DNA of 64,000 nt from Escherichia coli (GTDB taxonomy: Bacteria > Pseudomonadota > Gammaproteobacteria > Enterobacterales > Enterobacteriaceae), in the NCBI RefSeq assembly GCF_003991155.1, contig NZ_CP031293.1; one strand, given 5' to 3'. Position 1 is the stretch's first letter, and each line of letters starts with the position of its first letter. This document shows, in pieces, positions 3,215-60,170 of this stretch. Both the position numbers and the translations under genes were made by a program. The notes beneath the pieces are model-generated. The model saw only the letters and a program-made list of their open reading frames with translations. It was not told where the DNA came from and searched no databases.

Positions 3215-4222
3215 ATGGCAATTTATACCCGAACAGGTGATTCAGGAAGTACGTCTTTATTTACCGGACAGCGCGTCAGCAAAACTCATCTACGTGTCGA
3301 AACCTATGGCACGCTGGATGAACTGAACGCGACACTCAGTCTGTGTTATTGCGCCACCGCCATCGAAAGCCATCGCATCTTACTGGAAGCCATTCAACAA
3401 CAGATATTTTGGTTTAGCGCCGAACTCGCCAGTGAAAGCGAACAGCCGTCAGCGCAGCAGCGTTACATCGGTACGGAAGAAATTGCCGCGCTGGAAAACG
3501 CGATCGATAGCGCAATGAACGCCGTCCCCCCGGTTCACAGCTTCATTCTGCCTGGTCGATGTGAAGCTGCAAGCCGCATGCATTTCGCCCGCACGGTGGC
3601 TCGACGGGCTGAAAGACGTCTGGTTGAACTGACAACAGAAACCACCGTCCGGAATGTTTTGCTGCACTATATCAACCGACTTTCCGATTGCCTGTATGCC
3701 CTCGCCCGCGTGGAAGACAACGTTGCTCATCAAAACCTGATGATTCAGGAAATCACAAAACGTTATCACGAAGCCAACCACACACCAGCATTGAAGGAAC
3801 GCACAATGCCGCTCACTTTTCAGGATCTTCACCAGCTCATTCGTAGTGCGGCAATGCGCGCAGATGAACTGCATATTCCCGTTGTCATCAGCATTGTTGA
3901 TGCCAACGGAACAGAAAGTGTTACCTGGCGGATGCCTGATGCCCTGTTGGTCAGCAGTGAACTGGCACCGAAAAAAGCCTGGACCGCCGTGGCGATGAAA
4001 ACGGCAACCCACAAACTTGCTGATACCGTGCAACCCGGCGCGCCGCTTTACGGGCTCGAAAGCCATATGCAAGGCAAAGTCGTCACTTTTGGTGGCGGCT
4101 TCCCCCTCTGGCGTGACGGAAAATTGCTTGGCGGGCTTGGCATCAGCGGCGGTAGCGTTGAACAAGACATGGATATTGCCCAAAGCGCAATGGCGGCAAT
4201 TAACGTGGGAGTAAACCAATGA
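3215..4222 (+). CDS. pduO: ATP:cob(I)alamin adenosyltransferase with C-terminal DUF336-like domain
   Basis: 335 aa; PduO-type N-terminal domain (MAIYTRTGDSGSTSL) plus C-terminal domain. Confidence 0.75.
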   Translation: MAIYTRTGDSGSTSLFTGQRVSKTHLRVETYGTLDELNATLSLCYCATAIESHRILLEAIQQQIFWFSAELASESEQPSAQQRYIGTEEIAALENAIDSAMNAVPPVHSFILPGRCEAASRMHFARTVARRAERRLVELTTETTVRNVLLHYINRLSDCLYALARVEDNVAHQNLMIQEITKRYHEANHTPALKERTMPLTFQDLHQLIRSAAMRADELHIPVVISIVDANGTESVTWRMPDALLVSSELAPKKAWTAVAMKTATHKLADTVQPGAPLYGLESHMQGKVVTFGGGFPLWRDGKLLGGLGISGGSVEQDMDIAQSAMAAINVGVNQ

Positions 4223-5604
4223 ATAACTCTGAATTAGAAACACTGATCCGCAATATTCTGCGTGAGCAGCTTGCCCCCGCTACGCAACGAGCGCAAAGAA
4301 ACGCTATTTTCCAGACTGTTGATGAAGCGGTCTGCGCAGCGCACCAGGCCTTTTTACGCTTTCAACAGTGCCCGCTTAAAACCCGTAGCGCCATTATCAG
4401 CGCCATTCGCGAAGAATTAATGCCCCGCCTTACCGAACTGGCAGAAGAAAGCGCCAGTGAAACAGGGATGGGAAATAAAGAGGATAAGTATCTAAAGAAC
4501 AAAGCAGCACTCAATAATACGCCAGGAATTGAAGATTTAACCACCACTGCACTAACCGGTGATGGTGGCATGGTTTTGTTTGAATACTCCCCGTTTGGGG
4601 TTATTGGCTCGGTCACGCCAAGCACCAACCCCACGGAAACCATCATTAACAACAGCATCAGCATGCTGGCAGCAGGTAATAGCGTCTACTTCAGTCCACA
4701 CCCGGGAGCCAAATACGTTTCGTTAAAACTGATTACCACAATCGAAGACATCGCGTTTCGCTGTAGTGGCATTCACAACCTGATCGTTACCGTATCTGAA
4801 CCGACCTTTGCCGCCACCGAACAGATGATGGCGCACCCTAAAATCAGCGTTCTGGCGATTACCGGCGGTCCGGGGATCGTCGCCATGGGAATGAAAAGTG
4901 GCAAGAAAGTGATTGGTGCCGGTGCGGGTAACCCTCCGTGCATCGTCGATGAAACGGCGGATATTGTGAAAGCCGCCGAAGATATCATCAACGGCGCTTC
5001 ATTTGATTACAACCTGCCGTGTATCGCTGAAAAAAGCCTGATTGTCGTGGCATCAGTGGCAGAGTATTTAATTCAGCAGATGCAAAGTTTTGGCGCGCTT
5101 CTTCTTAACTATGAGCAAACGGAGAAATTGCGTGCAATTTGCCTGCCAGACGGTAGCGCCAACAAAAAACTGGTTGGGAAAAGCCCATCAGCCTTGCTGG
5201 AAGCGGCAGGCCTCCCTTTGCCCGCAAAAGCGCCGCGCCTACTGATTGCTGTTGTCGACGCCAATGATAGTTGGGTTACTTGTGAACAACTGATGCCAAT
5301 GCTGCCCATTGTGAAGGTCAACGATTTTGATAGCGCTCTCGCCCTGGCGTTGAAAGTGGAAGACGGCTTGCACCACACGGCAATTATGCACTCGCAGAAC
5401 GTCTCACGGCTCAACCTTGCCGCGCGCGTTATGCAAACCTCAATCTTTGTCAAAAACGGCCCCTCTTGGGCGGGTATTGGCGTCGGCGGCGAAGGCTTTA
5501 CGACCTTTACTATTGCAACACCGACCGGAGAAGGGACAACGTCAGCACGGACTTTTGCCCGCTCACGACGCTGTGTGTTAACCAGCGGCTTTTCAATTCG
5601 CTAG
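4219..5604 (+). CDS. pduP: CoA-acylating propionaldehyde dehydrogenase
   Basis: 461 aa aldehyde dehydrogenase family; operon position. Confidence 0.8.
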   Translation: MNNSELETLIRNILREQLAPATQRAQRNAIFQTVDEAVCAAHQAFLRFQQCPLKTRSAIISAIREELMPRLTELAEESASETGMGNKEDKYLKNKAALNNTPGIEDLTTTALTGDGGMVLFEYSPFGVIGSVTPSTNPTETIINNSISMLAAGNSVYFSPHPGAKYVSLKLITTIEDIAFRCSGIHNLIVTVSEPTFAATEQMMAHPKISVLAITGGPGIVAMGMKSGKKVIGAGAGNPPCIVDETADIVKAAEDIINGASFDYNLPCIAEKSLIVVASVAEYLIQQMQSFGALLLNYEQTEKLRAICLPDGSANKKLVGKSPSALLEAAGLPLPAKAPRLLIAVVDANDSWVTCEQLMPMLPIVKVNDFDSALALALKVEDGLHHTAIMHSQNVSRLNLAARVMQTSIFVKNGPSWAGIGVGGEGFTTFTIATPTGEGTTSARTFARSRRCVLTSGFSIR

Positions 5605-13238: not shown

Positions 13239-13306
13239 TTAACCTAATGATGAATGACGGTAAGCAACAATCTACCTTTTTGTTTCACGATTACGCGCAA
13301 CACCCC
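13239..13306 (+). pseudogene. sbcB: Displaced native 5' end of sbcB (first ~16 codons) left at prophage left junction
   Basis: ATGATGAATGACGGTAAGCAACAATCTACCTTTTTGTTTCACGATTACG encodes MMNDGKQQSTFLFHDY, then diverges into phage DNA and stops. Confidence 0.6.
13275..13287. repeat. attL core (13-bp identity with attR)
   Basis: TTTCACGATTACG identical to 53257-53269; flanks are imperfectly similar. Confidence 0.6.
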
Positions 13307-28483: not shown

Positions 28484-30649
28484 TTATTGAGGTGTCTCGG
28501 CTACTCCGCCGGAGGGGATTTGAACTTGACGCATAAGATTCGCGAAATCCATGCGTTGTGAATGAGTCTGGTCTGCATCTTTAAGAAGCAGCTCAGCGTT
28601 AGCACGAGCATCTTTGCTGCGCTGTTGCTGGAATTGACCTACGAGCTTGAGGTACTCACGCAGTTCTGCCTGCTTGTCTAGGTCCATATTGTTGAAGATT
28701 TCCGCAATCTTCGCGGCGTTGAGTTGGTTTTGGGCTTCAACCTTGGCGGCTTCAACCTGAATCTGCGCCTGTTGGTTCTCTGCCTTGAGCAATTCAGCCT
28801 GACCTTGCAGAAGGATACCCTGCGCCTGAATTTGCTCTGCTGATGGCTGCTGCGGCTGCTGTTGAGCCTGCTGTACCATCTCCATCTCTTCAGGTGTTTC
28901 TGGTTTCTTCAGCCCCATCATCACCAGTTGCTTGTTCGCGTACTCTCGCATCATCTCGACGCCTTTACCGTCAAGCAGCGTGAAGTATTGCAGCATCAGC
29001 ATCTGGAACTCTGGAGTACCTTGTGGAACCTTGGTGAGTAACTCCTGAATCTCTGCGCGGTTCTGTTCCTTCATACTCTGGAAGGATGGTCCAACGTCTG
29101 TATAGCACTCATAGCGACCGCGAATGTCGTTGAGTGTGACCACATTGCCGGACTGGTAATCTACAACTTGCGCGTAGAGTTGAACGTCTTTCTCGCTTCC
29201 GTCTTCAAGAGTCAGCGTTACATGGCGAGGAACGTCATAAATATCGTTGACCATTGAGGCATAAATCTCGCCATCACGTCGCATTGCGGTAGCCAGGTTA
29301 TCCTGAAACACGTATGTCTCAAGGTCTGCCCGCATGTTCAGTTGATTGACGGTATCGAAAGCGACCTGACCATTTGCCGCCTGCGCATCAACGCCAAGAC
29401 TAGCCACCTCTTTCACTGCGTTGGTGGCTGCCTCAAGCATGTAAGCGTTGGCTTGCGGCACTTCAGGGTTTTCCATGTAGGAGATTGGACCAATCGGCAG
29501 GTCGTTACCGTTTTCATCGGTCCTGTTCTGCAGATAGTACGGATAGTCATCATTTCCACCGTACATGTATTCGTAGCCTTCGATTTGCTCAGGGAAGAAG
29601 GTCGGTTTCTTCTTCGGTGAACGAGCAACAATATCGGCGTTGAATGACATGATCATGTTACGAAGGCGCTGACCGTCTTTCGTCAGCCTTACCACTCCTT
29701 CGTAGCACTCCTTGTCACCAGCGAATGACCATTCGCCATACACTGGAACGATTGGAATATGCTCTCCGGCTATCTTCTCGCGGTCTTTCAGTATCTGCGT
29801 GCAGGTGATGATCGACTTATACACACGCCGACGCTTGACCTTACGCTCTGCCACCTTAATGAATCCACGATTAGCCAGGTCGTCGATGACGTCTTTGATA
29901 TCCTGCTGGTAATAGCTGACCGGCTCACCTGTCAGCGGGTCGCGGTAGATGAAGACTTTCTCTTTCTTCTCTTCGACCTCGTAATACTCAGCGACGTAGA
30001 CGACATCATTCGATACCCACGGAAACAGCCATGTATCGTTCGGATTCTGGAAAGATGGCAAGGTGTCAGGATCAATACCGTAATCCTCTGCGAACTCTTT
30101 CCAGCCATTGCGTGACAAAGCGTTAATCACCGTGCAGTGCTTAGCGTCGCTCTTATCCATCTGCTTGCTATTGGCGTCCCATATGACGTGTGAGCAGGCT
30201 TCATGGATTGGAAGGCGTCGGATTACCTGATTGTTGCTTGTTGGATCGTTGTCTTCGTACTGCGTGACCAGACGCCATGCACCAACGCCGGACTCTATCT
30301 GCTCACGAACGCCAACGTTAACGGCAATTTTTGCCGTGTTATGGCGCATATCAGTACGATACATCCCCATCAACACATCGGCTGCATCAGGATTAGCACC
30401 GTCTTTTGGTCGGAAGAGAACGTCGATAGGGTTCCGGCGCATCTCTGCGACCAACTTCCTGACCACCGGGCGGACAACATCGAATTGTCCGCGATATTGC
30501 AGGGTGGTGTAGTTTGATAGCCAGTCATCCCATTGCGACACTCGGCTAAAATACAGGTCATTTGTCGCCTCGGTTCTGGCTTCATCGCTCGCCATCCAGT
30601 CTGCGTCAAACTTACACAGAATGGAATTGAGTCTGTTTTCGTCGGCCAT
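28484..30649 (-). CDS. Portal protein (P22 gp1-like)
   Basis: 721 aa; Gln-rich C-terminal barrel region. Confidence 0.9.
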
Positions 30650-43538: not shown

Positions 43539-44189
43539 ATGAAAACTCAATTGATGGGAGAGCGCATTCGCGCTCGGAGAAAAGAACTCAAGATCAGGCA
43601 GGCCGCACTTGGAAAGATGGTCGGCGTGTCTAATGTTGCCATATCTCAGTGGGAACGCTCTGAGACAGAGCCAAATGGAGAGAATCTTCTCGCCCTGGCT
43701 AATGCGTTGAAGTGTTCCCCTGACTATCTGATGAAAGGAGAGGAAAGTCTTTCAAACATTGCCTATCACAGTAGGCATGATCCAAGAGGGTCATACCCTC
43801 TGATTAGCTGGGTGAGCGCAGGATGCTGGATGGAAGCTGTAGAACCATATCATAAGCGTGCAATAGATAACTGGTACGATACAACCGTAGACTGTTCAGA
43901 AGATTCGTTTTGGTTGGATGTGAAGGGAGACTCAATGACGGCTCCGGCCGGTCTCAGTATCCCTGAAGGAATGATAATACTCGTCGATCCTGAAGTAGAG
44001 CCGCGTAACGGGAAACTGGTAGTTGCAAAGCTCGAAGGAGAAAACGAGGCAACTTTCAAGAAGTTAGTTATTGATGCAGGCAGGAAGTTTCTAAAACCAC
44101 TTAACCCACAATATCCGATGATCGAGATCAACGGAAACTGCAAAATCATCGGCGTAGTTGTCGATGCAAAACTAGCAAACCTTCCATAA
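43539..44189 (+). CDS. c2: C2 repressor (P22-type, LexA-like autocleaving)
   Basis: 216 aa, HTH N-domain and S24 peptidase C-domain. Confidence 0.95.
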   Translation: MKTQLMGERIRARRKELKIRQAALGKMVGVSNVAISQWERSETEPNGENLLALANALKCSPDYLMKGEESLSNIAYHSRHDPRGSYPLISWVSAGCWMEAVEPYHKRAIDNWYDTTVDCSEDSFWLDVKGDSMTAPAGLSIPEGMIILVDPEVEPRNGKLVVAKLEGENEATFKKLVIDAGRKFLKPLNPQYPMIEINGNCKIIGVVVDAKLANLP

Positions 44190-44795: not shown

Positions 44796-45095
44796 ATGAC
44801 AGTAGTCATTACATATCTAGCTGACGATAACGCCAGAAATCGCCGCAGAGCACGCAGGCAGGCTCAACGTGAACAGGCAATGCAAGAACAGCGACTGGCG
44901 CGAAAGATTGCGCTAAAGCTCTCTGGTTGCGTCAGAGCAGACAAAGCAGCATCACTCGGAAGCCTTCGCTGCAAGAAGGCAGAAGAAGTCGAGAGTAAAC
45001 AGAACCGTATTTACTACCGCAAGCCACGCAGTGAAATGGGTGTGACTTGTGTTGGTCGCCAGAAAATGAAATTAGGCAGCAAACCACTTATTTGA
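44796..45095 (+). CDS. N-like antitermination protein (P22 gene 24-like)
   Basis: 99 aa, arginine-rich motif NARNRRRARRQAQREQ. Confidence 0.7.
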   Translation: MTVVITYLADDNARNRRRARRQAQREQAMQEQRLARKIALKLSGCVRADKAASLGSLRCKKAEEVESKQNRIYYRKPRSEMGVTCVGRQKMKLGSKPLI

Positions 45096-45730: not shown

Positions 45731-45903
45731 TCGGCCTTTATTTTTGGCACTAACAACAGAATAAACACTGCACTGTGTATTCATTCCAACGAGTGAATAC
45801 ACGGAGCAATGTCGCTCTTAACTAAACAGGAGCCGACTTGTTCTGATTATTGGAAATCTTCTTTGCCCTCCAGTGTGAGGGCGATTTTTTTGATGGAGGA
45901 TAT

Positions 45904-46872
45904 ATGAGTGAAGTAACAGATTTAGTTGTTATTGAAAAAGCAAATGCAATGACTGTATTTCAGTCTGCCGACCAGATTGAAGAAATCCTTCAAAGGGTTG
46001 AACGTGAAGTTATGTCCTTTGTGCCTGATATCACAACGGCAAAGGGCAGAAAGGAGATCGCTTCTCTGGCGTATAAAGTTGCGCAGACGAAAACATATCT
46101 CGATGGTCTTGGCAAAGACCTTGTTGCTGAACTGAAGGAAATTCCAAAGCTAATTGATGCCAACCGCAAGACAGTGCGCGATCGCCTTGATGAGCTGAAA
46201 GCCAAGGCACGCCAGCCTCTTACTGATTATGAGGAAGAACAGGCGCGGATTAAAGCCGAAGAAGAAGCTAAGGCAGCAGCTGAAGCTCTCGCAAAGCAAA
46301 TTGAGTCTGACCATGAAATAGCTATTTTGATGGATCGCGAATTTGACCGCCAAAGAGAAGAGGCAAGACTCAAAGCGGAGCAGGAAAAGCGAGAGCATGA
46401 AGAACGCTTAAAAAGAGAAGCTGAAGAGAAAGCCAGAGCAGAAGCCGAAGCAAAGGCAAAAGCCGAAATTGAAGCAGCAGCAAGGCGAGAAGCAGAAGCT
46501 AAGGCCGCAGCGGAACGTGCAGAGCGTGAACGCATTGAAGCCGAGCAACGAGCACAGCGCGAAGCAAAAGAGGCAGCAGAACGAGCTGAAAGAGAAAAGC
46601 AGGCGGCAATTGAAGCAGAACGCCGAAAAGCACAGGAGGAGGCTGAACGAATCCGGCGCGAGGCTGAAGCAAAAGAGCAAGCCAGAATAGCAGAAGAAAA
46701 AAGAATCAAGGACGAAGAAGAGCGTAGAGCAAAGGATAAAGCTCACCGGAAAGAAGTAAATAACAAAATACTTGCTGACCTTATCAAGGTTGGCGCATCA
46801 GAAGATGTTGCTAAAAATATCATAACAGCCATCGTAAAAGGCGAAGTATTCGCAACAAAAATAACCTACTAA
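45904..46872 (+). CDS. Coiled-coil protein with TolA domain-II-like Ala/Glu/Lys/Arg repeats
   Basis: 322 aa from ATG with GGAGGA RBS; ~180-aa low-complexity tract. Confidence 0.5.
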   Translation: MSEVTDLVVIEKANAMTVFQSADQIEEILQRVEREVMSFVPDITTAKGRKEIASLAYKVAQTKTYLDGLGKDLVAELKEIPKLIDANRKTVRDRLDELKAKARQPLTDYEEEQARIKAEEEAKAAAEALAKQIESDHEIAILMDREFDRQREEARLKAEQEKREHEERLKREAEEKARAEAEAKAKAEIEAAARREAEAKAAAERAERERIEAEQRAQREAKEAAERAEREKQAAIEAERRKAQEEAERIRREAEAKEQARIAEEKRIKDEEERRAKDKAHRKEVNNKILADLIKVGASEDVAKNIITAIVKGEVFATKITY

Positions 46873-46895: not shown

Positions 46896-47027
46896 ATGAT
46901 TTACGCAATCGCGGGAGGCGCTCGCATGGGTGCCTTCCAACTAAATGAATCTTTACTTGAACGAATCACCCGTAAATTACGTGACGGATGGAAAAGAGTT
47001 GAGGTCTTATTATGCGCAATGAAATAG
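46896..47027 (+). CDS. cIII: CIII-like protease inhibitor
   Basis: 43 aa, ESLLERITRKLRDGWKR core like lambda CIII. Confidence 0.65.
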   Translation: MIYAIAGGARMGAFQLNESLLERITRKLRDGWKRVEVLLCAMK

Positions 47028-47164
47028 CCATCAATCACCAGATGCTTCGTGCTGCACAGAACAAAGCAGTAATAGCCAGATTTATTGGTGATTCAAAAAT
47101 GTGGCTTGAAGCAAATAAAGCAATGAAATCAGCTATCAACCTTCCGTGGTATCGCAGGAAATGA
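47012..47164 (+). CDS. kil: Kil-like host division inhibitor
   Basis: 50 aa, ARFIGDSKMWLEA resembles lambda Kil motif. Confidence 0.55.
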   Translation: MRNEIAINHQMLRAAQNKAVIARFIGDSKMWLEANKAMKSAINLPWYRRK

Positions 47165-47418: not shown

Positions 47419-48126
47419 ATGGATTTGAACAAATTCGATGAACCATTCAGCCCTGAAGATATCGAATGGCGAATACAGCAAAGCGGTAAAACACGCGATG
47501 GCAAGGTGTGGGCTATGGTGCTGGCTTATGTCACGAACCGGGCAATCATGAAACGCCTGGACGATGTTTGCGGCAAAGCAGGATGGCGCAATGAATACCG
47601 CGATATTCCCAACAACGGCGGAGTTGAATGCGGCATATCAATCAAGATTGATTCCGAATGGGTAACCAAATGGGATGCTGCTGAAAACACGCAGGTAGAA
47701 GCCGTCAAAGGTGGTCGTTCCGGTGCAATGAAGCGTGCTGCCGTTCAATGGGGAATCGGTCGGTATCTGTATAACCTTGAGGAAGGTTTCGCACAAACAT
47801 CTCTCGATAAAAAGCAGGGATGGCACAGGGCAAAACTGAAGGATGGAACAGGATTTTACTGGCTCCCTCCATCGCTGCCGGGATGGGCAATCCCAGCATC
47901 AGATAACAAACCATCACCAGAAAATACCAACCAGAAATCTCCATCGGTTGACTGCGAACAAATCCTGAAAGACTTCAGCGATTATGCATCAACAGAAACT
48001 GACAAGAAAAAACTCATCGAGCGTTATCAGCGTGACTGGCAATTAATGGCTGGCAACGAGGAGGCGCAGGCTAAATGCGTTCAGGTAATGAACATCAGAG
48101 TTAACGAACTAAAACAGGCGGCATAA
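47419..48126 (+). CDS. Rad52-family single-strand annealing protein
   Basis: 235 aa; AAVQWGIGRYLY motif. Confidence 0.65.
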   Translation: MDLNKFDEPFSPEDIEWRIQQSGKTRDGKVWAMVLAYVTNRAIMKRLDDVCGKAGWRNEYRDIPNNGGVECGISIKIDSEWVTKWDAAENTQVEAVKGGRSGAMKRAAVQWGIGRYLYNLEEGFAQTSLDKKQGWHRAKLKDGTGFYWLPPSLPGWAIPASDNKPSPENTNQKSPSVDCEQILKDFSDYASTETDKKKLIERYQRDWQLMAGNEEAQAKCVQVMNIRVNELKQAA

Positions 48127-48633
48127 ATGGCAAGCAGAGGCGTAAATAAGGTGATTATCCTTGGTCGGGTAGGACAAGACCCGGAAGTTCGATACTCACC
48201 ATCAGGAACAGCGTTCGCTAACCTGACAATAGCCACGTCAGAACAATGGCGAGATAAAAATACTGGCGAGCAAAAGGAATTAACTGAATGGCATCGTGTT
48301 GCTGTATCCGGGAAACTGGCTGAGGTCGTGGGGCAGTATGTGAAAAAAGGTGATCAGATTTATTTCGAGGGAATGCTGAGAACCAGAAAGTGGAAAGACC
48401 AGTCAGGGCAAGACCGTTACACAACCGAGGTTCATGTCGGAATTAATGGCGTGATGCAAATGCTTGGCGGCATTGGCGACAGCAAACAACAAGCAGCCAG
48501 CAGGCAATCACAGAAGCCACAGCAGCAATCATCACCAGCACAACACAACGAACCTCCGATGGATTTTGACGACGATATACCCTTTGCACCAGTAACTCTC
48601 CCCTTCCCTCGTCACGCTATTCACGCAATTTAA
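48127..48633 (+). CDS. ssb: Single-stranded DNA-binding protein
   Basis: 168 aa; OB-fold N-domain, Gln-rich linker, acidic DFDDDIPF tail. Confidence 0.9.
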
Positions 48634-48646
48634 TCAGGAGAAAATC

Positions 48647-48940
48647 ATGCCAGCGCCTCTGTATGGTGCGGATGACCCGCGCCGCTGTTCCGGCAATTCC
48701 GTATCGGAGGTGCTGGATAAATTCAGGAAAAACTACGACCTGATAATGTCGCTACCGCAGGAAACGAAAGAGGAAAAGGAATTTCGCCATTGTATATGGC
48801 TTGCAGAGAAAGAAGAACGCGAGCGAATTTACCAGACATCAATCCGACCATTCCGCAAAGCCACATATACCCACTTCCCTGAAATTGACCCGCGCCTGCG
48901 TAATTACCGCTCACGCTATGGCGCTATCAGTAATGACTGA
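48647..48940 (+). CDS. Hypothetical protein
   Basis: 97 aa ORF in early-left operon. Confidence 0.4.
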
Positions 48941-49114
48941 GGAATTTACCATGAGAGGACTTGCATACAATCCCGGCATTCTTCCGGCAGAAATGATTAT
49001 TCGCCAACGTGTAAAGCCAATGCCATCGAGAGAGGAATTGCTTAAGAGAAATTCTTTTCCATCAGTAAATCAAAACAAATATCTGAATGCGATGTGGCGT
49101 AAAGGAGGTAAGCA

Positions 49115-49741
49115 GTGAGCAAGATTGATTATCAAAAGCTTCGTGAAATCGCTGAAAAAACAAAAATTGCTGGTGAAACACCCGTAATGCCTTTCGATCA
49201 GCGAATTAATGCGCTTAACGATTTTATGAAGCACTTTTCGCCAGATATCGCGCTGGCATTGTTGGATGAACGGGAAAGAAACCTGCAATACATCAAACGC
49301 CGCGACCAGGAGAACGAGGAAATTGCGCTAACGGTAGGGAAGCTGAGAGTTGAGCTGGAAGGCAAAGACAGCAAAATAGCCAATCTTACCGCCGAACGCG
49401 ATGCTCTTCGTGAAGGTGAGATGGGCGACGCTAGGCATAGCAACACACGGGCCGCAGCTGATATCTACTTCCAACTGGTCGAGGAGTGCGAAATTCCTGC
49501 TGGCGGATCTCTGGTCGAGTACGTTGACGATATGCGCGAGAAGCTGGAAGCCGCAGAGAAGCGCATTGCTGAGCTGGAGTTGCTGGAGGTTGTGCTTCCG
49601 CAATGCTATAGCATGTTGCATCGCGTCGATTTTGACGAGCCTTACCACACTGAAATGGTTTACAGGCAGCATCAGGTTCTTGAGGCACTGCACAACGCTG
49701 GAATAAACGTCACCGAAGCAGGTAAAGGAGAGGCATCATGA
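49115..49741 (+). CDS. Ead/Ea22-like protein
   Basis: 208 aa, central coiled coil. Confidence 0.5.
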
Positions 49742-50241
49742 GCACTATCACAAGAGAATGGCTGCAGCAGGCTATCAACGATTATGAAAGCGTTCGTGAT
49801 GAGCTTCCTTTCGGGCTTGATGATTACCAGGGGAATATCCTGGCTGCCCTGCGTATCGCACTGGCATCGCTGGAAGCAGAGCCGGTGGCGTGGAAGGTAA
49901 CATTCACGCAAATTGACCGTGAATATAACACGTTCACTGGTATGTATTCTGACAAAGCAGAAGTCGAACGGTGGGTGCGGCTGCATAAAGCATGTAATTT
50001 TCGGGCAGATATAACACCGCTTTATACCGCCAAGCCAGTGCCGGTAACTCCGGATGGTTGGATAAGCTGTAGTGAGCGAATGCCGAACGACGCGCAGTGG
50101 TGCGTAGTGAACACAGAATACGGGTATTACGTGCAATGCTGGTCTGAAGGTCAAGGGTGGCTTGGTGATGATATCAGCATCCCTGAATGCGATGTAATCA
50201 ATTGGATGCCGCTACCAGAACCACCGCAGGAGATGAAGTAA
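49738..50241 (+). CDS. DUF551-domain protein
   Basis: 167 aa; C-terminal WISCSERMP...NWMPLPEPP. Confidence 0.5.
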   Translation: MSTITREWLQQAINDYESVRDELPFGLDDYQGNILAALRIALASLEAEPVAWKVTFTQIDREYNTFTGMYSDKAEVERWVRLHKACNFRADITPLYTAKPVPVTPDGWISCSERMPNDAQWCVVNTEYGYYVQCWSEGQGWLGDDISIPECDVINWMPLPEPPQEMK

Positions 50242-50525
50242 TGGACTCCTTCGCGAAATATACGATTATTGACTGGATTGCCTTCCTTCAGGTTTTGCTC
50301 ATCTGGTTTTATATGGCTTACAGGAGTGGACAGTGGATTGTCAGTGTAGCCTGTAGCAGGGGATGGCGTTGGTGGAACCGAAAGAATAAAAAAGCACTGG
50401 CCTTGGATTCGTTTTACGAAGCATTCAATCTTAACAGCCTTCAGCCTGGTTCTGTCATTGTAGTCACCACTCAAAGCGGCATGACGATACAAATTCACAA
50501 GCCAAAGGAGGAAGGTCGTGGCTAA
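50241..50525 (+). CDS. Hypothetical small membrane-associated protein
   Basis: 94 aa from ATG overlapping upstream stop (TAATG). Confidence 0.35.
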   Translation: MDSFAKYTIIDWIAFLQVLLIWFYMAYRSGQWIVSVACSRGWRWWNRKNKKALALDSFYEAFNLNSLQPGSVIVVTTQSGMTIQIHKPKEEGRG

Positions 50526-50799
50526 CCTGCAACTTGCCGTCAAAGGTGAATACTTCGACGCCATGATTCGCGGGGAGAAAACGGAAGAGTATCGCCTGTG
50601 CAATGACTACTGGAATAAACGCCTCGTTAATCGTAAGTATGACCGCCTGATTATCACAAAGGGATATCCGAAGCGCGACGATTCCAGCCGCAGAATTGAC
50701 GTCCCGTATGACGGATATGAAATCAAGACAATCACACATCCGCACTTCGGCGATAAACCGGTAACGGTATTCGCGATAAAGGTGAATATCAATTGCTAA
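50518..50799 (+). CDS. DUF3850/ASCH-like protein
   Basis: 93 aa, EYRLCNDYWNKRL pattern. Confidence 0.45.
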   Translation: MANLQLAVKGEYFDAMIRGEKTEEYRLCNDYWNKRLVNRKYDRLIITKGYPKRDDSSRRIDVPYDGYEIKTITHPHFGDKPVTVFAIKVNINC

Positions 50800-50912
50800 A
50801 TTAGTAGCATAGCATAAAGATGCTTGCATTAATGAAGTGTGTATAATAATGCCTCATCAATAGTAAACTACTGAAATAGCAAAAAAAATGCATATTAAAG
50901 AGGATTCGAAAA

Positions 50913-51104
50913 TTGAAAATGTTCATGCAAATAGACAGACGCATAGATATTAATGGCAATTCATACTTAGTTAGATGCGAAGAGAGGCCTAACGGTGAGT
51001 GGCGTGTATATGATATTGACCGTAAGATCAATATCAGCACCATGAACAAAGACACTGCCTTTGATGAATGGAAAGCTGAAGCTAAAAAACAACATAATTC
51101 GTAA
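50913..51104 (+). CDS. Hypothetical protein
   Basis: 63 aa ORF in AT-rich stretch. Confidence 0.3.
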   Translation: MKMFMQIDRRIDINGNSYLVRCEERPNGEWRVYDIDRKINISTMNKDTAFDEWKAEAKKQHNS

Positions 51105-51183
51105 AATTACAAAAACCCTAACCAATTGATGGATTTCTTTTATCTGAACTCGCTACGGCGAGTTTTGTTTTATGGAGATGATA

Positions 51184-51352
51184 AATGCACTTCCGAGTCA
51201 CAGGAGAATGGAATGGAGAGCCATTCAACAGAGTTATCGAAGCGGAGAACATCAACGACTGCTACGACCACTGGATGATATGGGCGCAGATAGCACATGC
51301 AGACGTAACCAATATTCGAATTGAAGAACTGAAAGAACACCAAGCCGCCTGA
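51184..51352 (+). CDS. Small hypothetical protein followed by terminator
   Basis: ~55 aa (MHFRVTGEWNGEPF); hairpin CCGCCTGATGGCGG plus T-run after stop; coordinates +/-1. Confidence 0.3.
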
Positions 51353-51375
51353 TGGCGGTTTTTTGGGGGTAGTAG

Positions 51376-51567
51376 ATGGCTGCAATTCACATTGTATCAA
51401 TAACATGCAATGCAATTCAGATAGTTGCTTGCATTATCTTTGTTTTCTCAATCATTCGCTCCAGACGATATTCTCCAGCAATTAACCGACATCCTGCACA
51501 AGTTGAAGCCGTCAGGATGGCTATAGAGTTACGAAATGAGATGAATAAGGCATTAATGGAGATGTAG
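51376..51567 (+). CDS. Small hydrophobic hypothetical protein
   Basis: 63 aa ORF with N-terminal hydrophobic stretch. Confidence 0.25.
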   Translation: MAAIHIVSITCNAIQIVACIIFVFSIIRSRRYSPAINRHPAQVEAVRMAIELRNEMNKALMEM

Positions 51568-51691
51568 AAACCATTCACTGACAAACATTAAGAGTGGAAA
51601 TAAAGAAATCACACCGCCTCACACTCGATGAGGCCTGTTCATATCTGATAGAGCCGCTATATGGCGGTTTCTTTTTGCCTGGAGAATTAAG

Positions 51692-51883
51692 ATGACCGAT
51701 ACCAGCCTGATTCCTGAGAAAGAAGTGATGAACAAGCTCGGTGTTTCATCACGTCAGACAATCTGGAACTATACCAAACGGCACGGATTTCCGAAGCCAG
51801 TCAGAACCCACCCCAAATCATACCTTCGTGAAGCTGTTGAAGGGTGGATTCTTAACGGTGGCGTTAATCAGAAATGCTCCTGA
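51692..51883 (+). CDS. xis: AlpA-family excisionase / DNA-binding regulator
   Basis: 63 aa with HTH (LGVSSRQTIWNYTKRHGFPKP); adjacent to integrase. Confidence 0.7.
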   Translation: MTDTSLIPEKEVMNKLGVSSRQTIWNYTKRHGFPKPVRTHPKSYLREAVEGWILNGGVNQKCS

Positions 51884-53042
51884 TGTGCCAGAACAATTTA
51901 TCAGCGTGAAGCTCATACGCTTTGCGCTGAGCCTCTATCCAGTCGTGTTTATTGTATACGGACATTATCCCGCCAAGTTCATGACCGAGCATTCGCTCAG
52001 TAACATGAGGCTCGACATTCATCTCGGACAGACGTGTAACAAGCGTTCTTCTGAAATCGTGTGTTCGCCAGTAACCTAGATCCATCCCTCCCCTTATTCT
52101 ATTTACGAATCGGTTGGCTGCAGCGATGCTGATCGGTTTGTTTATGTCTTCTCCAGGGAAAAGAACATCATTGTACGTTGTCATGGCCTTTTCGAGGAAA
52201 GGCTTAATTTGTTCGAAGATTGGACGGCGGATAGCATTACCCATCTTGCTATGCTCTTTCGGTACGGTCCATACGTTTTCCAGCAGGTCAAATTCTGTCT
52301 TTTTTGCCAGCCTAAGCTCTGAGAGCCTCGCCCCCCACAGCATAAGCATCTGATGAAGTAGCTTATTTGACGTAGACGCACGGCTTCTTTCAATAGCAAG
52401 CCAAATCTTAGCCAGTTCGTGATACGACAGTACACGATCCCCTACCTCAGCGCGGGAGCCGAAGTCCCTTGGTTGGATGCTCATAATTGCGCAACTATCT
52501 ATCAACTGACGCCGCATGCACCAACTTATTGCTGATCTTAGTTGACTTAGCACCTGCCTTGCTCGGCGTGGATTATCTCTTTCTTCTTCGGTAAGCAGGT
52601 CAACCCATTGCTTAACCGTGATAGAAGATGCCGGACGATTAGGGAAGGCGTCATGCATGCGCTTCATAACCGTTGATCGGTAAAGTGCCTGGGTCTTTTC
52701 TCTGAGAGTTGTAGAGACGTAGTTGTCGAACCAGTAGTCGAGACACTGGGCGACCGTCATGGAGTTCTCCACCTTCTCTTCAAAATAAGTGCGTGGATCC
52801 GTTCCTGAGAAATAGAGCTTTCGCAAGTCAGCAGTGATCTGTCTGGCATCCTTCAAAGACATGGATGGGTATCGACCAAGCCCAAGTCGATTAGGCTTGC
52901 CATGCCAGCGATAGCGGTACTGGAACTGGATGACCCCCTTCGGTGAAATTCGTACGCTGAGGCCATCGGCATCAGCCACTTCTTGTGGGCCCGAATATGG
53001 TTTACCATAAATAGTACGAAGTTTTGTGTCGCTTATAGCCAT
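51864..53042 (-). CDS. int: Tyrosine site-specific integrase
   Basis: 392 aa; C-terminal HDFRRT...LGH catalytic region; next to right junction. Confidence 0.9.
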   Translation of the reverse strand: MAISDTKLRTIYGKPYSGPQEVADADGLSVRISPKGVIQFQYRYRWHGKPNRLGLGRYPSMSLKDARQITADLRKLYFSGTDPRTYFEEKVENSMTVAQCLDYWFDNYVSTTLREKTQALYRSTVMKRMHDAFPNRPASSITVKQWVDLLTEEERDNPRRARQVLSQLRSAISWCMRRQLIDSCAIMSIQPRDFGSRAEVGDRVLSYHELAKIWLAIERSRASTSNKLLHQMLMLWGARLSELRLAKKTEFDLLENVWTVPKEHSKMGNAIRRPIFEQIKPFLEKAMTTYNDVLFPGEDINKPISIAAANRFVNRIRGGMDLGYWRTHDFRRTLVTRLSEMNVEPHVTERMLGHELGGIMSVYNKHDWIEAQRKAYELHADKLFWHIRSISD

Positions 53043-53050
53043 AAATAATA

Positions 53051-53097
53051 TTTGGTACGCTCAGAAATAATGGTTTGGTACACATCTGGTACACAAT
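53051..53097. promoter_or_regulatory. Candidate integrase arm-type binding sites (right arm)
   Basis: Repeated TTTGGTACGC / TTTGGTACAC / TGGTACACAA motifs between int and core. Confidence 0.4.
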
Positions 53098-53223
53098 ATC
53101 ACATGGACAACAGCGCACAGTAAACAACTATATTTGACGTTCGTAGACATACTCAGGTGAAAAAATGGTTGTTTTTCGAGTTATAACAGACAGTTAATTA
53201 ACTACAGTGGACAATGCTAGACA

Positions 53224-54648
53224 ATGACAGACACAGATAAACAACCTACCTTCCTCTTTCACGATTACGAAACCTTTGGAACGCACCCCGCGTTAGATCG
53301 CCCTGCACAGTTCGCAGCCATTCGCACTGATAACGAATTCAATGTCATCGGCGAACCCGAAGTCTTTTACTGCAAGCCCGCGGATGACTATTTACCCCAG
53401 CCTGGAGCAGTATTAATTACCGGTATTACCCCGCAGGAGGCACGGGCGAAAGGAGAAAACGAAGCCGCGTTTGCCGCCCGTATTCACTCGCTTTTTACCG
53501 TACCGAAGACCTGTATTCTGGGCTACAACAATGTGCGTTTCGACGACGAAGTCACACGCAACGTTTTTTATCGTAATTTCTACGATCCTTACGCCTGGAG
53601 CTGGCAGCATGATAACTCGCGCTGGGATTTACTGGATGTTATGCGTGCCTGTTATGCCCTGCGCCCGGAAGGAATAAACTGGCCTGAAAATGATGACGGT
53701 CTACCGAGCTTTCGCCTTGAGCATTTAACCAAAGCGAATGGTATTGAACATAGCAACGCCCACGATGCGATGGCTGATGTGTACGCCACTATTGCGATGG
53801 CGAAACTGGTAAAAACGCGTCAGCCACGCCTGTTTGATTATCTCTTTACCCATCGTAATAAACACAAACTGATGGCGTTGATTGATGTTCCGCAGATGAA
53901 ACCCCTGGTTCACGTTTCCGGAATGTTTGGGGCATGGCGTGGCAATACCAGCTGGGTGGCACCGCTGGCGTGGCATCCTGAAAATCGCAATGCCGTAATT
54001 ATGGTGGATTTGGCAGGAGACATTTCGCCATTACTGGAGCTGGATAGCGACACATTGCGCGAGCGTTTATATACCGCAAAAGCCGATCTTGGCGATAACG
54101 CCGCCGTTCCGGTTAAGCTGGTGCATATCAATAAATGTCCGGTACTGGCCCAGGCGAATACGCTACGCCCGGAAGATGCCGACCGACTGGGAATTAATCG
54201 TCAGCATTGCCTCGATAACCTAAAAATTCTGCGTGAAAATCCGCAAGTGCGTGAAAAAGTGGTGGCGATATTCGCGGAAGCCGAACCGTTTACGCCTTCA
54301 GATAACGTGGATGCACAGCTTTATAATGGCTTTTTCAGTGACGCCGATCGTGCAGCAATGAAAATTGTGCTGGAAACCGAGCCGCGTAATTTACCGGCAC
54401 TGGATATCACTTTTGTTGATAAACGAATTGAAAAACTGTTGTTCAATTATCGAGCGCGCAACTTCCCGGGGACGCTGGATTATGCCGAGCAGCAACGCTG
54501 GCTTGAGCACCGCCGCCAGGTCTTCACGCCAGAGTTTTTGCAGGGCTACGCTGATGAATTGCAGATGCTGGCACAACAGTATGCCGATGACAAAGAGAAA
54601 GTGGCGCTGTTAAAAGCGCTTTGGCAGTACGCGGAAGAGATTGTCTAA
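53224..54648 (+). CDS. sbcB: Exodeoxyribonuclease I; first ~11 codons supplied by the prophage
   Basis: 474 aa; N-terminus MTDTDKQPTFLFHDYETFG differs from the remnant MMNDGKQQSTFLFHDY at attL. Confidence 0.9.
   Translation: MTDTDKQPTFLFHDYETFGTHPALDRPAQFAAIRTDNEFNVIGEPEVFYCKPADDYLPQPGAVLITGITPQEARAKGENEAAFAARIHSLFTVPKTCILGYNNVRFDDEVTRNVFYRNFYDPYAWSWQHDNSRWDLLDVMRACYALRPEGINWPENDDGLPSFRLEHLTKANGIEHSNAHDAMADVYATIAMAKLVKTRQPRLFDYLFTHRNKHKLMALIDVPQMKPLVHVSGMFGAWRGNTSWVAPLAWHPENRNAVIMVDLAGDISPLLELDSDTLRERLYTAKADLGDNAAVPVKLVHINKCPVLAQANTLRPEDADRLGINRQHCLDNLKILRENPQVREKVVAIFAEAEPFTPSDNVDAQLYNGFFSDADRAAMKIVLETEPRNLPALDITFVDKRIEKLLFNYRARNFPGTLDYAEQQRWLEHRRQVFTPEFLQGYADELQMLAQQYADDKEKVALLKALWQYAEEIV
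53257..53269. repeat. attR core (13-bp identity with attL)
   Basis: TTTCACGATTACG inside sbcB codons 12-16. Confidence 0.6.
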
Positions 54649-57527: not shown

Positions 57528-57793
57528 GGTCATTCTCCTTTACGGTGATAACCGTCGCGTAAGCAAAAAATTGCCCCATTTTTTTGGATTCCTCAGCGAC
57601 AACAACTGTCGATTTTTAGTAAATATCTATCCGGTACGAAGCCCGGCCTCTTGGTATGAATGATTGGTTTGAAGCAAAAAATAACCGACGCTAATTAAAC
57701 GTCGGTTTTTAGTCATTTTTTGACAGCGGCGCATTGTGCCTAAATGGGGGGGAAATGACAAGAGAATGAGAGGCTTGTCATAATAATTTTTCT

Positions 57794-60019: not shown

Positions 60020-60070
60020 ATGACACGCGTTCAATTTAAACACCACCATCATCACCATCATCCTGACTAG
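60020..60070 (+). CDS. hisL: his operon leader peptide
   Basis: MTRVQFKHHHHHHHPD with seven consecutive His codons. Confidence 0.9.
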   Translation: MTRVQFKHHHHHHHPD

Positions 60071-60170
60071 TCTTTCAGGCGATGTGTGCTGGAAGACATT
60101 CAGATCTTCCAGTGGTGCATGAACGCATGAAAAAGCCCCCGGAAGATCACCTTCCGGGGGCTTTTTTATT
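60071..60170 (+). promoter_or_regulatory. his attenuator including terminator hairpin
   Basis: Hairpin AAAGCCCCCGGAAGATCACCTTCCGGGGGCTTTTTT at 60132-60170. Confidence 0.8.

Follow-up and report, generated by a model that had tools for sequence, protein, structure and literature searches.

A mosaic of small-gene cassettes beginning with an Abc2 homologue lies between ssb and xis of a lambdoid prophage in Escherichia coli

Results

Genes and features between ssb and xis

The stretch analyzed here (the window) covers 64,000 nucleotides of Escherichia coli contig NZ_CP031293.1. Nine open reading frames, g1 to g9, tile positions 48647-51567 on the plus strand and would encode proteins of 97, 55, 208, 167, 94, 93, 63, 55, and 63 aa. 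A previous sequence-only reading had described a run of nine short genes between ssb and xis, and all nine were recovered in that place with both flanks. The features are listed below.

48127-48633, left flank: SSB gene (Pfam PF00436, E 2e-36)
48647-48940, plus: g1, Abc2, P22-type anti-RecBCD protein 2 by sequence, 97 aa, ATG start (PF11043, phrog_656, PDB 8b1t)
48951-49118, plus: g2, DUF2737 small protein, 55 aa, ATG start (Pfam PF10930, E 1.3e-30; phrog_1117)
49115-49741, plus: g3, Ead/Ea22-family protein, 208 aa, GTG start (Pfam PF13935, E 4.5e-16; phrog_250, phrog_368, and phrog_1667)
49738-50241, plus: g4, DUF551-domain protein, 167 aa (Pfam PF04448, E 3.4e-11; phrog_60)
50241-50525, plus: g5, DUF4752 protein, 94 aa, hydrophobic N-terminal segment (Pfam PF15944, E 1.7e-35; phrog_667)
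50518-50799, plus: g6, small protein, probably ASCH/PUA-like (DUF3850-type), 93 aa, GTG start (phrog_625, E 2e-50)
50800-50912, no strand: spacer rich in A+T (28% G+C), with which the rare g7 cassette begins (composition and DNA depth)
50913-51104, plus: g7, member of a small and narrow family, 63 aa, TTG start, 37% G+C (phrog_16329, E 8.5e-49)
51146-51165, plus: hairpin with T-run, left linker of the orf55 block, GAACTCGCTACGGCGAGTTT then TGTTTTATGG
51185-51352, plus: g8, lambda Orf55 (lambdap35), 55 aa (phrog_676; 55/55 identical)
51345-51364, plus: rho-independent terminator-like hairpin overlapping the end of g8, CCGCC-TGAT-GGCGG then T6 (sequence)
51376-51567, plus: g9, ORF of doubtful status, 63 aa, hydrophobic at the N-terminus (phrog_15342, E 1.7e-43)
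51634-51616, minus, and 51651-51670, plus with a T-run: back-to-back hairpins shortly before xis, forming the linker to the right of the g9 slot
51692-51883, plus: AlpA-type excisionase/regulator (xis), 63 aa, bounding the cluster on the right

Based on PHROG and Pfam matches, the gene order is repressor, N-like antiterminator, CIII, Kil, Rad52-type annealase, SSB, cluster, and xis, with the cluster on the strand of the PL operon. This agrees with the earlier placement of the cluster in the distal early-left operon of a lambdoid phage. Abc1 is absent, and the recombinase partner of Abc2 here is the Rad52-type annealase with SSB, not P22 Erf. The xis product matched phrog_66, "excisionase and transcriptional regulator" (E 1.9e-8), and Pfam Phage_AlpA (E 3.5e-3). 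It was 100% identical to its homologues in Sf101 (by tblastn) and HK140, both annotated as "AlpA family regulatory protein"; a PADLOC match of xis to mad1 (E 4e-4) was at noise level. At its 3' end, xis shares 20 nt with the integrase gene, which converges on it from the minus strand (51864-53042).

Plus-strand ORFs of at least 50 aa covered 94.6% of the interval, compared to 24.5% +/- 11%, with a maximum of 62%, in 500 shuffles. Each of the nine ORFs is preceded by a Shine-Dalgarno sequence of the AGGAG/GGAG type 6-9 nt upstream. Four junctions have the overlapping stop and start codons noted previously: g2/g3 (GTGA), g3/g4 (ATGA), g4/g5 (TAATG), and g5/g6 (8 nt). The reported AT-rich spacer was also found, at 28% G+C compared to 47% for the prophage. 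Neither an Rfam search of the interval nor an NCBIfam search of the cluster gave a match.

Coding constraint was calculated as pN/pS against homologues in 84 related, Abc2-anchored loci. The values were 0.13 for g1 (64 distinct homologues), 0.20 for g2, 0.33-0.36 for g3, 0.06 for g5, 0.16 for g6, and 0.13 for g8. Antisense ORFs gave 0.45-3.4 and had in-frame stops among the homologues. Purifying selection in the range of 0.06-0.36, together with the Shine-Dalgarno sites and the ORF coverage, supports coding by g1-g3, g5, g6, and g8.

g1 is an Abc2 protein

By sequence, g1 is a P22-type Abc2, an anti-RecBCD protein that has been characterized both experimentally and structurally. It matched PF11043 over residues 1-97 of 97 (E 6.9e-65) and phrog_656, "abc2 anti-RecBCD" (E 4e-55), and 90 of its 97 residues are identical to chain A of PDB 8b1t (E 2.8e-59). 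P22 Abc2, solved with RecBCD and PpiB (PDB 8b1t/8b1u), has the same length and the same RecC-binding part, residues 1-64, over which g1 and the 8b1t chain do not differ. g1 also keeps Pro68, the residue inserted into the active site of PpiB; the roles of the RecC-binding helices and of Pro68 as the PpiB site are taken from the structural study (PMC9836394). All seven substitutions are at residue 65 or beyond, in a C-terminal tail that the cryo-EM structures resolve only in part: P22 Abc2 is ordered to residue 52, and with PpiB the model extends to residue 66. The surroundings of g1 also differ from those of P22 Abc2, since the neighboring recombinase belongs to another family and there is no abc1.

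Families of g2 to g6

In HK140, g2 follows a RecT/Mu-Gam-like module and Abc2 is absent; the note in the HK140 record cites HK97 Gp38 as similar.

g3 is built of an Ead/Ea22 N-terminus and a central coiled coil, followed by a C-terminal domain of its own. Its matches to phrog_250, phrog_368, and phrog_1667 cover residues 1-202, 1-100, and 133-200, respectively. No PDB chain matched g3 at E <= 0.1, and hence it has no match to the solved C-terminal domain of lambda Ea22, to which its own is unrelated in sequence. C-terminal domains vary among Ea22 variants (PMC10834534) and, therefore, a lambda-like one is not needed for membership in the family. Ea22 proteins are reported to be pro-lysogenic in lambda and Stx phages, where the C-terminal domains of the proteins assayed differ from that of g3 (PMC10834534). 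At the DNA level, an internal piece of g3 (49250-49360) is common to about 33 loci and the remainder to 7-14.

g4 consists of a variable N-terminal part (phrog_5117/660) and a C-terminal DUF551 domain, with phrog_924/7704 matching residues 100-165. Only a motif piece of about 45 bp in its DNA (50040-50080) is widely common among the loci. g5 aligned with phrog_667 over residues 1-93 to 1-92 of 94. A longer start for g5 at 50187, which gives the longest ORF of the frame, was set aside because the family profiles fit the 94-aa form.

Homologues of g6 form 647 protein clusters, whose source names are "ASCH domain-containing protein" or DUF3850 (PF12961). Characterized proteins of the ASCH/PUA-like superfamily include YqfB, an ac4C amidohydrolase, and the nuclease ZmASCH. 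The match of g6 to Pfam ASCH (PF04266) was weak (E 0.057). An AlphaFold2 model (pLDDT 87) was compared with the PDB using Foldseek, and the top matches were nearly all ASCH or YTH proteins (3iuw, 2z0t, 1xne, 5gus, and YqfB 9kyh), a consistent ranking with weak scores (E 0.009-0.5, TM 0.48-0.58). Together these data lend modest support to an ASCH/PUA-like fold for g6.

g7, g8, and the doubtful g9

At the start of the g7 cassette, the number of loci with matching DNA falls from 11-12 to 2 at 50790-50800. A sigma-70 consensus scan found no site in the spacer; by eye, TTGCAT and TATAAT are present, separated by 12 nt, which is too short. The g7 family has only 7 clusters among 5.8 billion proteins. 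A full HMMER scan added two relatives of 60-62 aa with 49% and 36% identity, both located in early regions of other prophages and both sharing the start M-x-x-F-M-Q-I-D-R. An AlphaFold2 model made from only 6 sequences predicts four strands and a C-terminal helix (pLDDT 88.9), and a fold search with this model gave no significant match.

g8 is lambda Orf55. The protein is also 100% identical to lambda imm21 CPT_lambdaimm21_032, and a 234-bp block (51131-51364) that includes the terminator-like hairpin is 99.1% identical in DNA to lambda 29106-29339. As in lambda, the gene lies directly upstream of the xis region with a terminator hairpin. Homologues with 89-100% protein identity were found in 37 of the 84 loci, from P22-like and other lambdoid phages. 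Orf55 has been modelled as a modulator of RNA polymerase, a model that its own authors consider speculative (PMC8614690). The hairpin to the left of g8 had an RNA fold z of -2.7, and the starts of alignment segments (HSPs) clustered beside it at 51130 in 54 loci. The hairpin at the end of g8 had a z of -2.1, with HSP ends clustered at 51360 in 46 loci, and its counterpart in HK140 is annotated as "rho-independent terminator".

The count of nine may be too high. g9 and, with less likelihood, g7 could be chance ORFs in AT-rich DNA that serves the int-xis module as a linker or in regulation, which would leave seven or eight genes; we rate this as a real possibility, at somewhat below even odds. 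Homologues of g9 fall into only 3 protein clusters (71-77 aa), all of them automatic Logan gene calls and none in NCBI. The ORF is unannotated in RefSeq Sf101, whose authors called the stretch holding it, the gap between orf19 and orf20, non-coding (PMC4159516). The copy in the window has TAG where Sf101 has GAG and is cut relative to the 71-aa form; longer homologues, such as P0008, run on past this site. Its hydrophobicity is what would be expected of a T-rich chance ORF at 39% G+C, and its pN/pS was 0.43 on 25 differences only. For g7, PGAP made no call in E. coli YY76-1 despite 99% DNA identity. On the other hand, the g9 frame was intact in 5 of 5 homologous loci and appeared far more constrained than its antisense ORF (pN/pS 3.4), GGGGG, which is Shine-Dalgarno-like, lies 6 nt upstream, and the slot holds a clear gene in other phages. 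The g7 relatives, at 36-49% identity, share its length and start, and its predicted structure is a confident one. g9 has weak support as a gene and may not be one.

The g9 slot contains nothing in HK140, and in Stx2_16002 and E. coli YY76-1 it is occupied by a 114-aa phrog_1229 gene, so that two conserved hairpins bracket g9, another gene, or nothing. The right linker (51616-51670) showed two substitutions only among the window, Sf101, and Stx2_16002, though the cassette on its left differs in Stx2_16002.

The interval is a mosaic of one-gene cassettes

Searches of 50,697 phage records and 5,426 complete E. coli genomes found no place with at least 80% of the interval, yet pieces of it were present in 3,807 genomes. 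The best coverage by a phage record was 67%, in HF4s. Among the 84 loci, g2 was present in 82, g8 in 37, g5 in 16, g3 and g4 in 13 each, g6 in 12, g9 in 5, and g7 in 2. g5 was often found without g6, and g6 without g5 also occurred. Breakpoints clustered at 48640, 49090-49130, 50210, 50510, 50790, 51130, and 51360. The interval therefore consists of independently exchangeable one-gene cassettes, some of them exchanged at the level of domains, with joints at gene boundaries and at short conserved linkers containing hairpins and T-runs. The earlier description of a hypervariable accessory region was borne out by this pan-prophage comparison, and earlier studies portray equivalent regions as mosaics in which most functions are unknown (PMC8022706, PMC2629481, PMC4159516).

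Discussion

The cluster is genuine but of an ordinary, familiar type, composed of catalogued families. We consider it very probable (about 0.85) that a P22-like prophage of about 40 kb (Lederbergvirus, Sf101/HK620/HF4s-like) lies in the 5' end of sbcB and that its PL operon ends distally in this interval, a non-essential "ea/hka-type" accessory segment carrying Abc2 and dispensable modulators that act singly. The "ea" genes of P22 and the "hka" genes of HK620, which run from abc2 to xis in the early-left region, as do those of HF4s, CUS-3, ST104, Sf6, and Sf101, have the same operon position and orientation. They have Abc2, DUF2737, Ead/Ea22, DUF551 ("EaA" in HF4s), DUF4752, and putative ASCH families in common with the cluster, with 87-97% DNA identity over the common pieces, and they show similar mosaic behavior (PMC8022706, PMC2629481). 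The cluster differs from them in its exact combination of genes, in the rare g7 cassette (2/84 loci), and in its neighbors, a Rad52-type annealase with SSB in place of Erf/Abc1 on one side and an sbcB-specific convergent int/AlpA module on the other.

The sequence-only reading held that none of these genes could be given a function from sequence. This was wrong, because g1 is the characterized Abc2, g8 is lambda Orf55, which has a published though speculative model, g3 belongs to the Ea22 family, with its published pro-lysogenic phenotype, and g6 has, with modest support, an ASCH/PUA-like fold. The family labels in that reading, Ead/Ea22, DUF551, and DUF3850 (here g3, g4, and the ASCH-like g6), held up in profile matches and in the names of homologues.

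In the model that we favor, which draws on analogy with lambda and P22 for expression, N-dependent read-through, and dispensability, N-modified transcription from PL would pass the internal hairpin terminators on infection or induction, and the whole string would be expressed early. Abc2 would bind the Chi-recognition domains of the host RecC, with PpiB engaging Pro68, as in the mechanism described for P22 (PMC9836394). RecBCD, once bound, might then no longer destroy the ends of phage DNA but provide single-stranded DNA for the annealase/SSB pair encoded just upstream. This hand-off is extrapolated, since the partner is a Rad52-type protein with SSB, not Erf, and Abc1 is absent. The other eight ORFs would be dispensable modulators, each acting singly rather than as one machine, because the cassettes assort independently; pairs of them may still cooperate in this phage. 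Among these, g3 may be an Ea22-type coiled-coil protein that biases the phage toward lysogeny, g8, as Orf55, possibly binds RNA polymerase, and g6 could be a small ASCH/PUA-like binder of nucleic acid or nucleoside. g2, g4, g5, and g7 would be small proteins for which no target is named, and g9 may be no gene.

Two more specific roles for the cluster were weighed against this model. One is that of a dedicated anti-defence island, in which several of g2-g9 inhibit host immunity (restriction, abortive infection, or nucleotide signalling) and are expressed first. This overlaps with our preferred explanation and appears unlikely, even with the cluster genes early in the operon and adjoining Abc2, a proven counter-defence gene, whose neighborhood with abc1 has already been treated as an accessory region for counter-defence (10.1101/2023.04.06.535777). 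Hypervariability, independently assorting cassettes, and small proteins under strong constraint in some cases, such as g5 and g8, would also fit such an island. However, sequence and fold searches tied none of g2-g9 to a characterized anti-defence protein. PADLOC, whose models represent defence systems and not anti-defence proteins, gave a single sub-threshold match in the cluster, of g3 to PbeC (E 0.0083). The anti-defence enrichment named in the sequence-only reading gained no support for g2-g9 from the PADLOC and NCBIfam searches. The only published phenotypes among relatives are an effect of Ea22 on the choice between lysis and lysogeny and a speculative one of Orf55 on RNA polymerase. The 100% identity of g8 to the lambda protein, with homologues at 89-100% in 37 of the 84 loci, is unlike the fast diversification typical of arms-race genes.

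[quoted passage not shown] Both are N-antiterminated PL segments running from the recombination genes to xis, and they have two members in common, namely Orf55, which is identical, and the Ea22 family, represented by the N-terminus and coiled coil of g3. Ea22 favors lysogeny, and the whole exo-xis region impairs lysogenization and boosts induction (PMC7093339, PMC3824215, PMC10834534). These phenotypes come mostly from multicopy plasmids and are modest in lambda, and the C-terminal domain of g3 is a different one. Furthermore, the cluster lacks ea8.5 and the orf60a-orf63-orf61-orf73 cassette conserved in lambda and Stx phages, is joined to Abc2-based recombination instead of Gam/Red, and has in g2, g4-g7, and g9 six ORFs without any tie to development.

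The right-hand part of the cluster also resembles the morons. Morons are linker-flanked cassettes of lambdoid phages (Juhala et al. 2000; Hendrix), and the classical ones have autonomous expression in the lysogen. Similarly, g7, g8, and g9 are single small genes between conserved short sequences with terminator-like hairpins (51146-51165, 51345-51364, and 51651-51670). Base composition deviates as well, at 28-37% G+C for the g7 cassette, or 28-39% when g9 is included, compared to 47% for the prophage. A consensus scan of the plus strand found no promoter 5' of g7, g8, or g9. The sole promoter-like site on that strand in this part is internal to g7 (TGGAAA-18-CATAAT, 51069-51098, 9/12), and shuffled sequences gave more sites overall. 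For these three ORFs, none of which has a convincing promoter of its own, transcription from PL is therefore more probable than the autonomous expression of classical morons.

Genomic context of the cluster

The nine small ORFs at 48647-51567 (g1-g9) are flanked by an SSB gene and by an AlpA-type excisionase/regulator gene (xis), as the sequence-only reading had proposed. The genes surrounding the cluster are listed below.

Genes flanking the cluster
43539-44189, plus strand: CI/LexA-type repressor, upstream of the cluster
44796-45095, plus strand: N-like antiterminator, upstream
46896-47027, plus strand: CIII, upstream
47012-47164, plus strand: Kil, upstream
Between Kil and the annealase, plus strand: two small recombination-associated ORFs
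47419-48126, plus strand: Rad52-family annealase (Rad52/Rad22, PF04098, E 4e-25)
48127-48633, plus strand: full-length bacterial-type SSB (PF00436, E 2e-36)
51692-51883, plus strand: AlpA-like xis, right boundary of the cluster
51864-53042, minus strand: tyrosine integrase, followed by sbcB

A 13-bp core, TTTCACGATTACG, is found at 13283-13295 and 53257-53269 and bounds a prophage at about 13296-53256. Its reverse complement is the published attP of Sf101 and phage 2851, two phages that insert at the 5' end of sbcB (PMC4159516). The prophage in the window is likewise inserted at the 5' end of sbcB (53224-54648). The phage end gives sbcB a new N-terminus, MTDTDKQPTFLFHDYETFG, which makes the gene intact again; its former start, MMNDGKQQSTFLFHDY, is stranded at the opposite junction, near 13247-13295. 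Gene order, the flanking genes and the sbcB core therefore identify the interval as the distal end of the early-left (PL) operon of a P22-like (Lederbergvirus-type) prophage.

The recombination module (47419-48633) contains neither Erf nor Abc1; in contrast to P22, Abc2 is partnered here with an annealase of a different family. The xis and int genes converge, and their 3' ends share 20 nt. This is the layout of Sf101 and HK140, whereas int and xis are co-directional in lambda and P22. A terminator-like hairpin on the minus strand (51634-51616) would end the int transcript after an antisense run through xis.

Several other features of the neighborhood were observed. The same operon encodes a 340-aa protein (45850-46872, plus strand; phrog_1376/21365, function unknown) that is repetitive, coiled-coil-like and extremely rich in E, A, K and R; its counterpart in phage HF4s is labeled "antitoxin protein; similar to phage phi80 Agt". 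In a related prophage, that of E. coli A2 (L002), the early-left operon contains an InsQ/TnpB RNA-guided endonuclease gene (1631-2722), which separates the N region from the Erf gene. In the host flank, a histidine operon leader (60046-60169; RF00514, 132.9 bits) and the sRNA STnc240 (57674-57748; RF02074, 69.3 bits) agree with the sbcB-his neighborhood of E. coli/Shigella.

Coding evidence

The number, strand and lengths of the ORFs suggested by the sequence-only reading were borne out, as were the overlapping stop and start codons, which occur at four junctions (GTGA, ATGA, TAATG and an 8-nt overlap), and the AT-rich spacer at 50800-50912 (28% G+C vs 47% for the prophage). A scan of this spacer found no promoter consensus.

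ORFs of the interval. Sense-frame pN/pS is from 80 IMG/VR loci anchored on the g1 protein plus four annotated records. Presence among these 84 loci means at least 80% protein coverage; contig ends truncate many of the loci, and the counts are therefore lower bounds.
g1: 48647-48940, plus strand, 97 aa, ATG start; Abc2; pN/pS 0.13
g2: 48951-49118, plus strand, 55 aa, ATG start; DUF2737; pN/pS 0.20; at least 82/84 loci
g3: 49115-49741, plus strand, 208 aa, GTG start; Ead/Ea22; pN/pS 0.33-0.36; at least 13/84 loci
g4: 49738-50241, plus strand, 167 aa, ATG start; DUF551; at least 13/84 loci
g5: 50241-50525, plus strand, 94 aa, ATG start; DUF4752; pN/pS 0.06; at least 16/84 loci
g6: 50518-50799, plus strand, 93 aa, GTG start; ASCH/DUF3850-like; pN/pS 0.16; at least 12/84 loci
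g7: 50913-51104, plus strand, 63 aa, TTG start; at least 2/84 loci
g8: 51185-51352, plus strand, 55 aa, ATG start; lambda Orf55; pN/pS 0.13; at least 37/84 loci
g9: 51376-51567, plus strand, 63 aa, ATG start; doubtful; at least 5/84 loci
Antisense to g3: 49198-49446, minus strand; phrog_13760, E 1e-17; pN/pS 0.61 (sense 0.33)
Antisense to g6: 50464-50829, minus strand; phrog_20945, E 1e-52; pN/pS 2.7 (sense 0.16)

Every one of the nine ORFs has an AGGAG/GGAG-type ribosome-binding site 6-9 nt upstream. ORFs of 50 aa or more on the plus strand take up 94.6% of the interval, compared to 24.5% +/- 11% in 500 shuffles. Minus-strand ORFs cover 85% of it; the long antisense ORFs have pN/pS values of 0.45-3.4, and their homologues contain in-frame stops. 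Antisense genes opposite g3 and g6 were rejected on both grounds, with pN/pS of 0.61 and 2.7. Because of these high values and the interrupted homologues, phrog_13760 and phrog_20945 are probably wrong-strand mis-annotations.

A known sRNA in the interval was also rejected; the PL-operon sRNA of lambda, PreS/LPR1, maps elsewhere, to tL2a, with ea10 and ral on either side. There was no Rfam match in 48000-53300, even at E <= 1, and no tRNA in the interval.

Identities of g1-g6

The g1 protein matches Pfam PF11043 from end to end (E 6.9e-65) and also phrog_656 ("abc2 anti-RecBCD"). It is identical at 90/97 positions to the P22 Abc2 chain of PDB 8b1t/8b1u, including all of residues 1-64. Pro68, the Abc2 residue that goes into the PpiB active site (PMC9836394), is conserved. 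These matches identify g1 as Abc2.

Pfam assigns g2 to DUF2737 (E 1.3e-30), g3 to Ead/Ea22 (E 4.5e-16), the C-terminal part of g4 to DUF551 (E 3.4e-11) and g5, which has a hydrophobic N-terminus, to DUF4752 (E 1.7e-35). The N-terminus and coiled coil of g3 are those of its family and the C-terminal domain is different. The g6 family comprises 647 clusters whose source names are "ASCH domain-containing" or DUF3850; its match to Pfam ASCH reached an E of 0.057 only. The AlphaFold2 model of g6 (pLDDT 87) has PDB fold matches that are almost all ASCH/YTH-type PUA-like, among them 3iuw, 2z0t, 1xne, 5gus and YqfB (9kyh), with weak scores (E >= 0.009, TM about 0.5). No sequence relatives of g2, g3, g4, g5, g7 or g8 were found in the PDB.

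Two functional pairings were considered. The presence of DUF2737 in 82/84 loci, which were chosen by the presence of Abc2, raised the idea that it is an obligate Abc2 partner. This was rejected, since HK140 has DUF2737 without Abc2, downstream of a RecT/Mu-Gam-like module; the HK140 annotation itself names HK97 Gp38 as similar. The 8-nt overlap of g5 and g6 pointed to a coupled pair, which was rejected because many loci have g5 but not g6, or g6 but not g5.

The distal ORFs g7-g9

The only family match of g7 is phrog_16329, which has no known function, apart from weak repeat-like matches to large proteins. Its relatives form 7 clusters among 5.8 billion proteins, and a full HMMER scan added two proteins of 60-62 aa (49% and 36% identity). 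These two and g7 share an M-x-x-F-M-Q-I-D-R start and conserved R21, P26, G28, W30, D34, F50 and W53. An AlphaFold2 model from six sequences (pLDDT 88.9) has four strands plus a helix, with no significant fold match in the PDB or BFVD. We accept g7 as a gene. The distant relatives (36-49% identity) are in early regions of unrelated prophages, L085 (Logan SRR25078842) and L086 (Logan SRR5240315). One is surrounded by YfdP, DUF2303, ParB-like, MT-A70 methylase and antirepressor genes with a convergent integrase near; the other directly follows a DNA polymerase III theta (HOT-like) gene and precedes the small terminase.

The g8 protein is 100% identical to lambda Orf55/lambdap35, and by this identity g8 is lambda orf55. 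It belongs to a 234-bp block (51131-51364; hairpin, orf55, terminator hairpin) that is 99.1% identical to lambda 29106-29339. The counterpart of the final hairpin in HK140 is annotated as a rho-independent terminator. A modeling paper put forward the speculative idea that Orf55 folds like T7 Gp2 and binds RNA polymerase (PMC8614690).

g9 is doubtful as a gene. Its only family match is phrog_15342, a PHROG without known function, and it has three protein clusters only, all automatic Logan calls of 71-77 aa. Near-identical copies in Sf101 and IME10 are unannotated, including in the RefSeq record of Sf101, whose authors placed the orf19-20 gap among the stretches that apparently do not code for protein (PMC4159516). 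At a site that reads GAG in Sf101, the window copy has TAG, and longer homologous proteins run past that site. Its pN/pS of 0.43, on only 25 differences, compares with 3.4 in the antisense frame.

Possible functions

Gene identity, gene order and the mosaic cassette structure were observed, and g1 is, by sequence, near-identical to a protein with a solved RecBCD complex. By analogy with lambda and P22, the cluster would be expressed early, when PL transcripts modified by the N-like protein run through internal terminators after infection or induction. With PpiB, Abc2 would then bind RecC, and RecBCD would stop degrading phage ends and instead supply the phage annealase and SSB; that it supplies an annealase of the Rad52 type, not Erf, is an extrapolation. 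The remaining cassettes would be modulators, each dispensable.

Three other explanations are compatible with this picture. Several of g2-g9 may be anti-defense proteins. Among defense and curated families, NCBIfam gave no match and PADLOC matched only g3 within the cluster, to PbeC (E 0.0083, sub-threshold), which we treated as noise. Alternatively, g2-g9 may tune lysis-lysogeny or host physiology like the lambda exo-xis region. Finally, g9 and, less likely, g7 may not be genes; the stop codon and sparse homologues of g9 agree with this, and the start that g7 shares with its relatives and its confident model argue for a protein. We consider it rather unlikely that at least one of DUF2737, DUF4752, the ASCH-like protein, g7 and Orf55 is a host-takeover or counter-defense factor with an undescribed mechanism. 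For example, DUF2737, which lies at the recombination-module boundary in Abc2- and RecT/Gam-based modules alike, could target the machinery by which the host processes DNA ends, and ASCH-like g6 could read or remove a nucleic-acid modification.

Mosaicism and cassette exchange

The closest known counterparts are the "ea" genes of P22, the "hka" genes of HK620 and the lambda exo-xis region. Such early-left operons are highly mosaic, with most genes lacking a known function (PMC8022706, PMC2629481), and the surroundings of abc1/abc2 are an "accessory region" that earlier work has mined (10.1101/2023.04.06.535777). Eight of the nine ORFs have a Pfam family or a near-identical annotated copy in named phages (P22, HK620, HF4s, lambda). 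The region type is thus textbook knowledge; only the particular combination of ORFs is new, as expected for such regions, and it carries little weight as a discovery. Its use lies in a corrected annotation (g1 as Abc2, g8 as lambda Orf55, g9 doubtful, two antisense PHROGs as probable mis-annotations), a map of cassette-swap sites, and a shortlist of widespread, strongly constrained small proteins without a target (DUF2737, DUF4752, ASCH-like, Orf55) that would be cheap to add to systematic accessory-gene screens.

Of 5,426 complete E. coli genomes, 3,807 carry pieces of the interval, as do 608 phage records; at least 80% of it in one place was found in none of the phage records or genomes searched. 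The best whole-interval match was phage HF4s (67%), where these families carry the labels anti-RecBCD, EaE, EaD, EaA and an ASCH "RNA-binding protein". The pan-prophage comparison suggested by the sequence-only reading revealed mosaic content, with cassettes present in 2 to 82 of 84 loci. DNA breakpoints cluster at 47410, 48640, 49090-49130, 50210, 50510, 50790, 51130 and 51360, and cassettes are swapped at gene boundaries and conserved hairpin linkers. Short, widely shared DNA islands inside g3 (49250-49360) and g4 (50040-50080) indicate, from the alignments, domain-level exchange within these two genes.

The orf55 block recurs in 38-49 of the 84 P22-like loci. Some loci keep both of its hairpin flanks around a different middle, which would suit flanks that act as linkers for recombination. 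Compared with shuffled sequences, the hairpins fold more stably (z -2.1 to -2.7). A cassette slot (51365-51615) separates the Orf55 terminator (51345-51364) from the hairpins at 51616-51670 and has at least three states: empty in HK140, a g9-type ORF in Sf101, IME10 and the window, and an unrelated 114-aa phrog_1229 gene in Stx2a phage Stx2_16002 and E. coli YY76-1 (4080-4424 in comparison locus L089; about 3590-3935 in L004).
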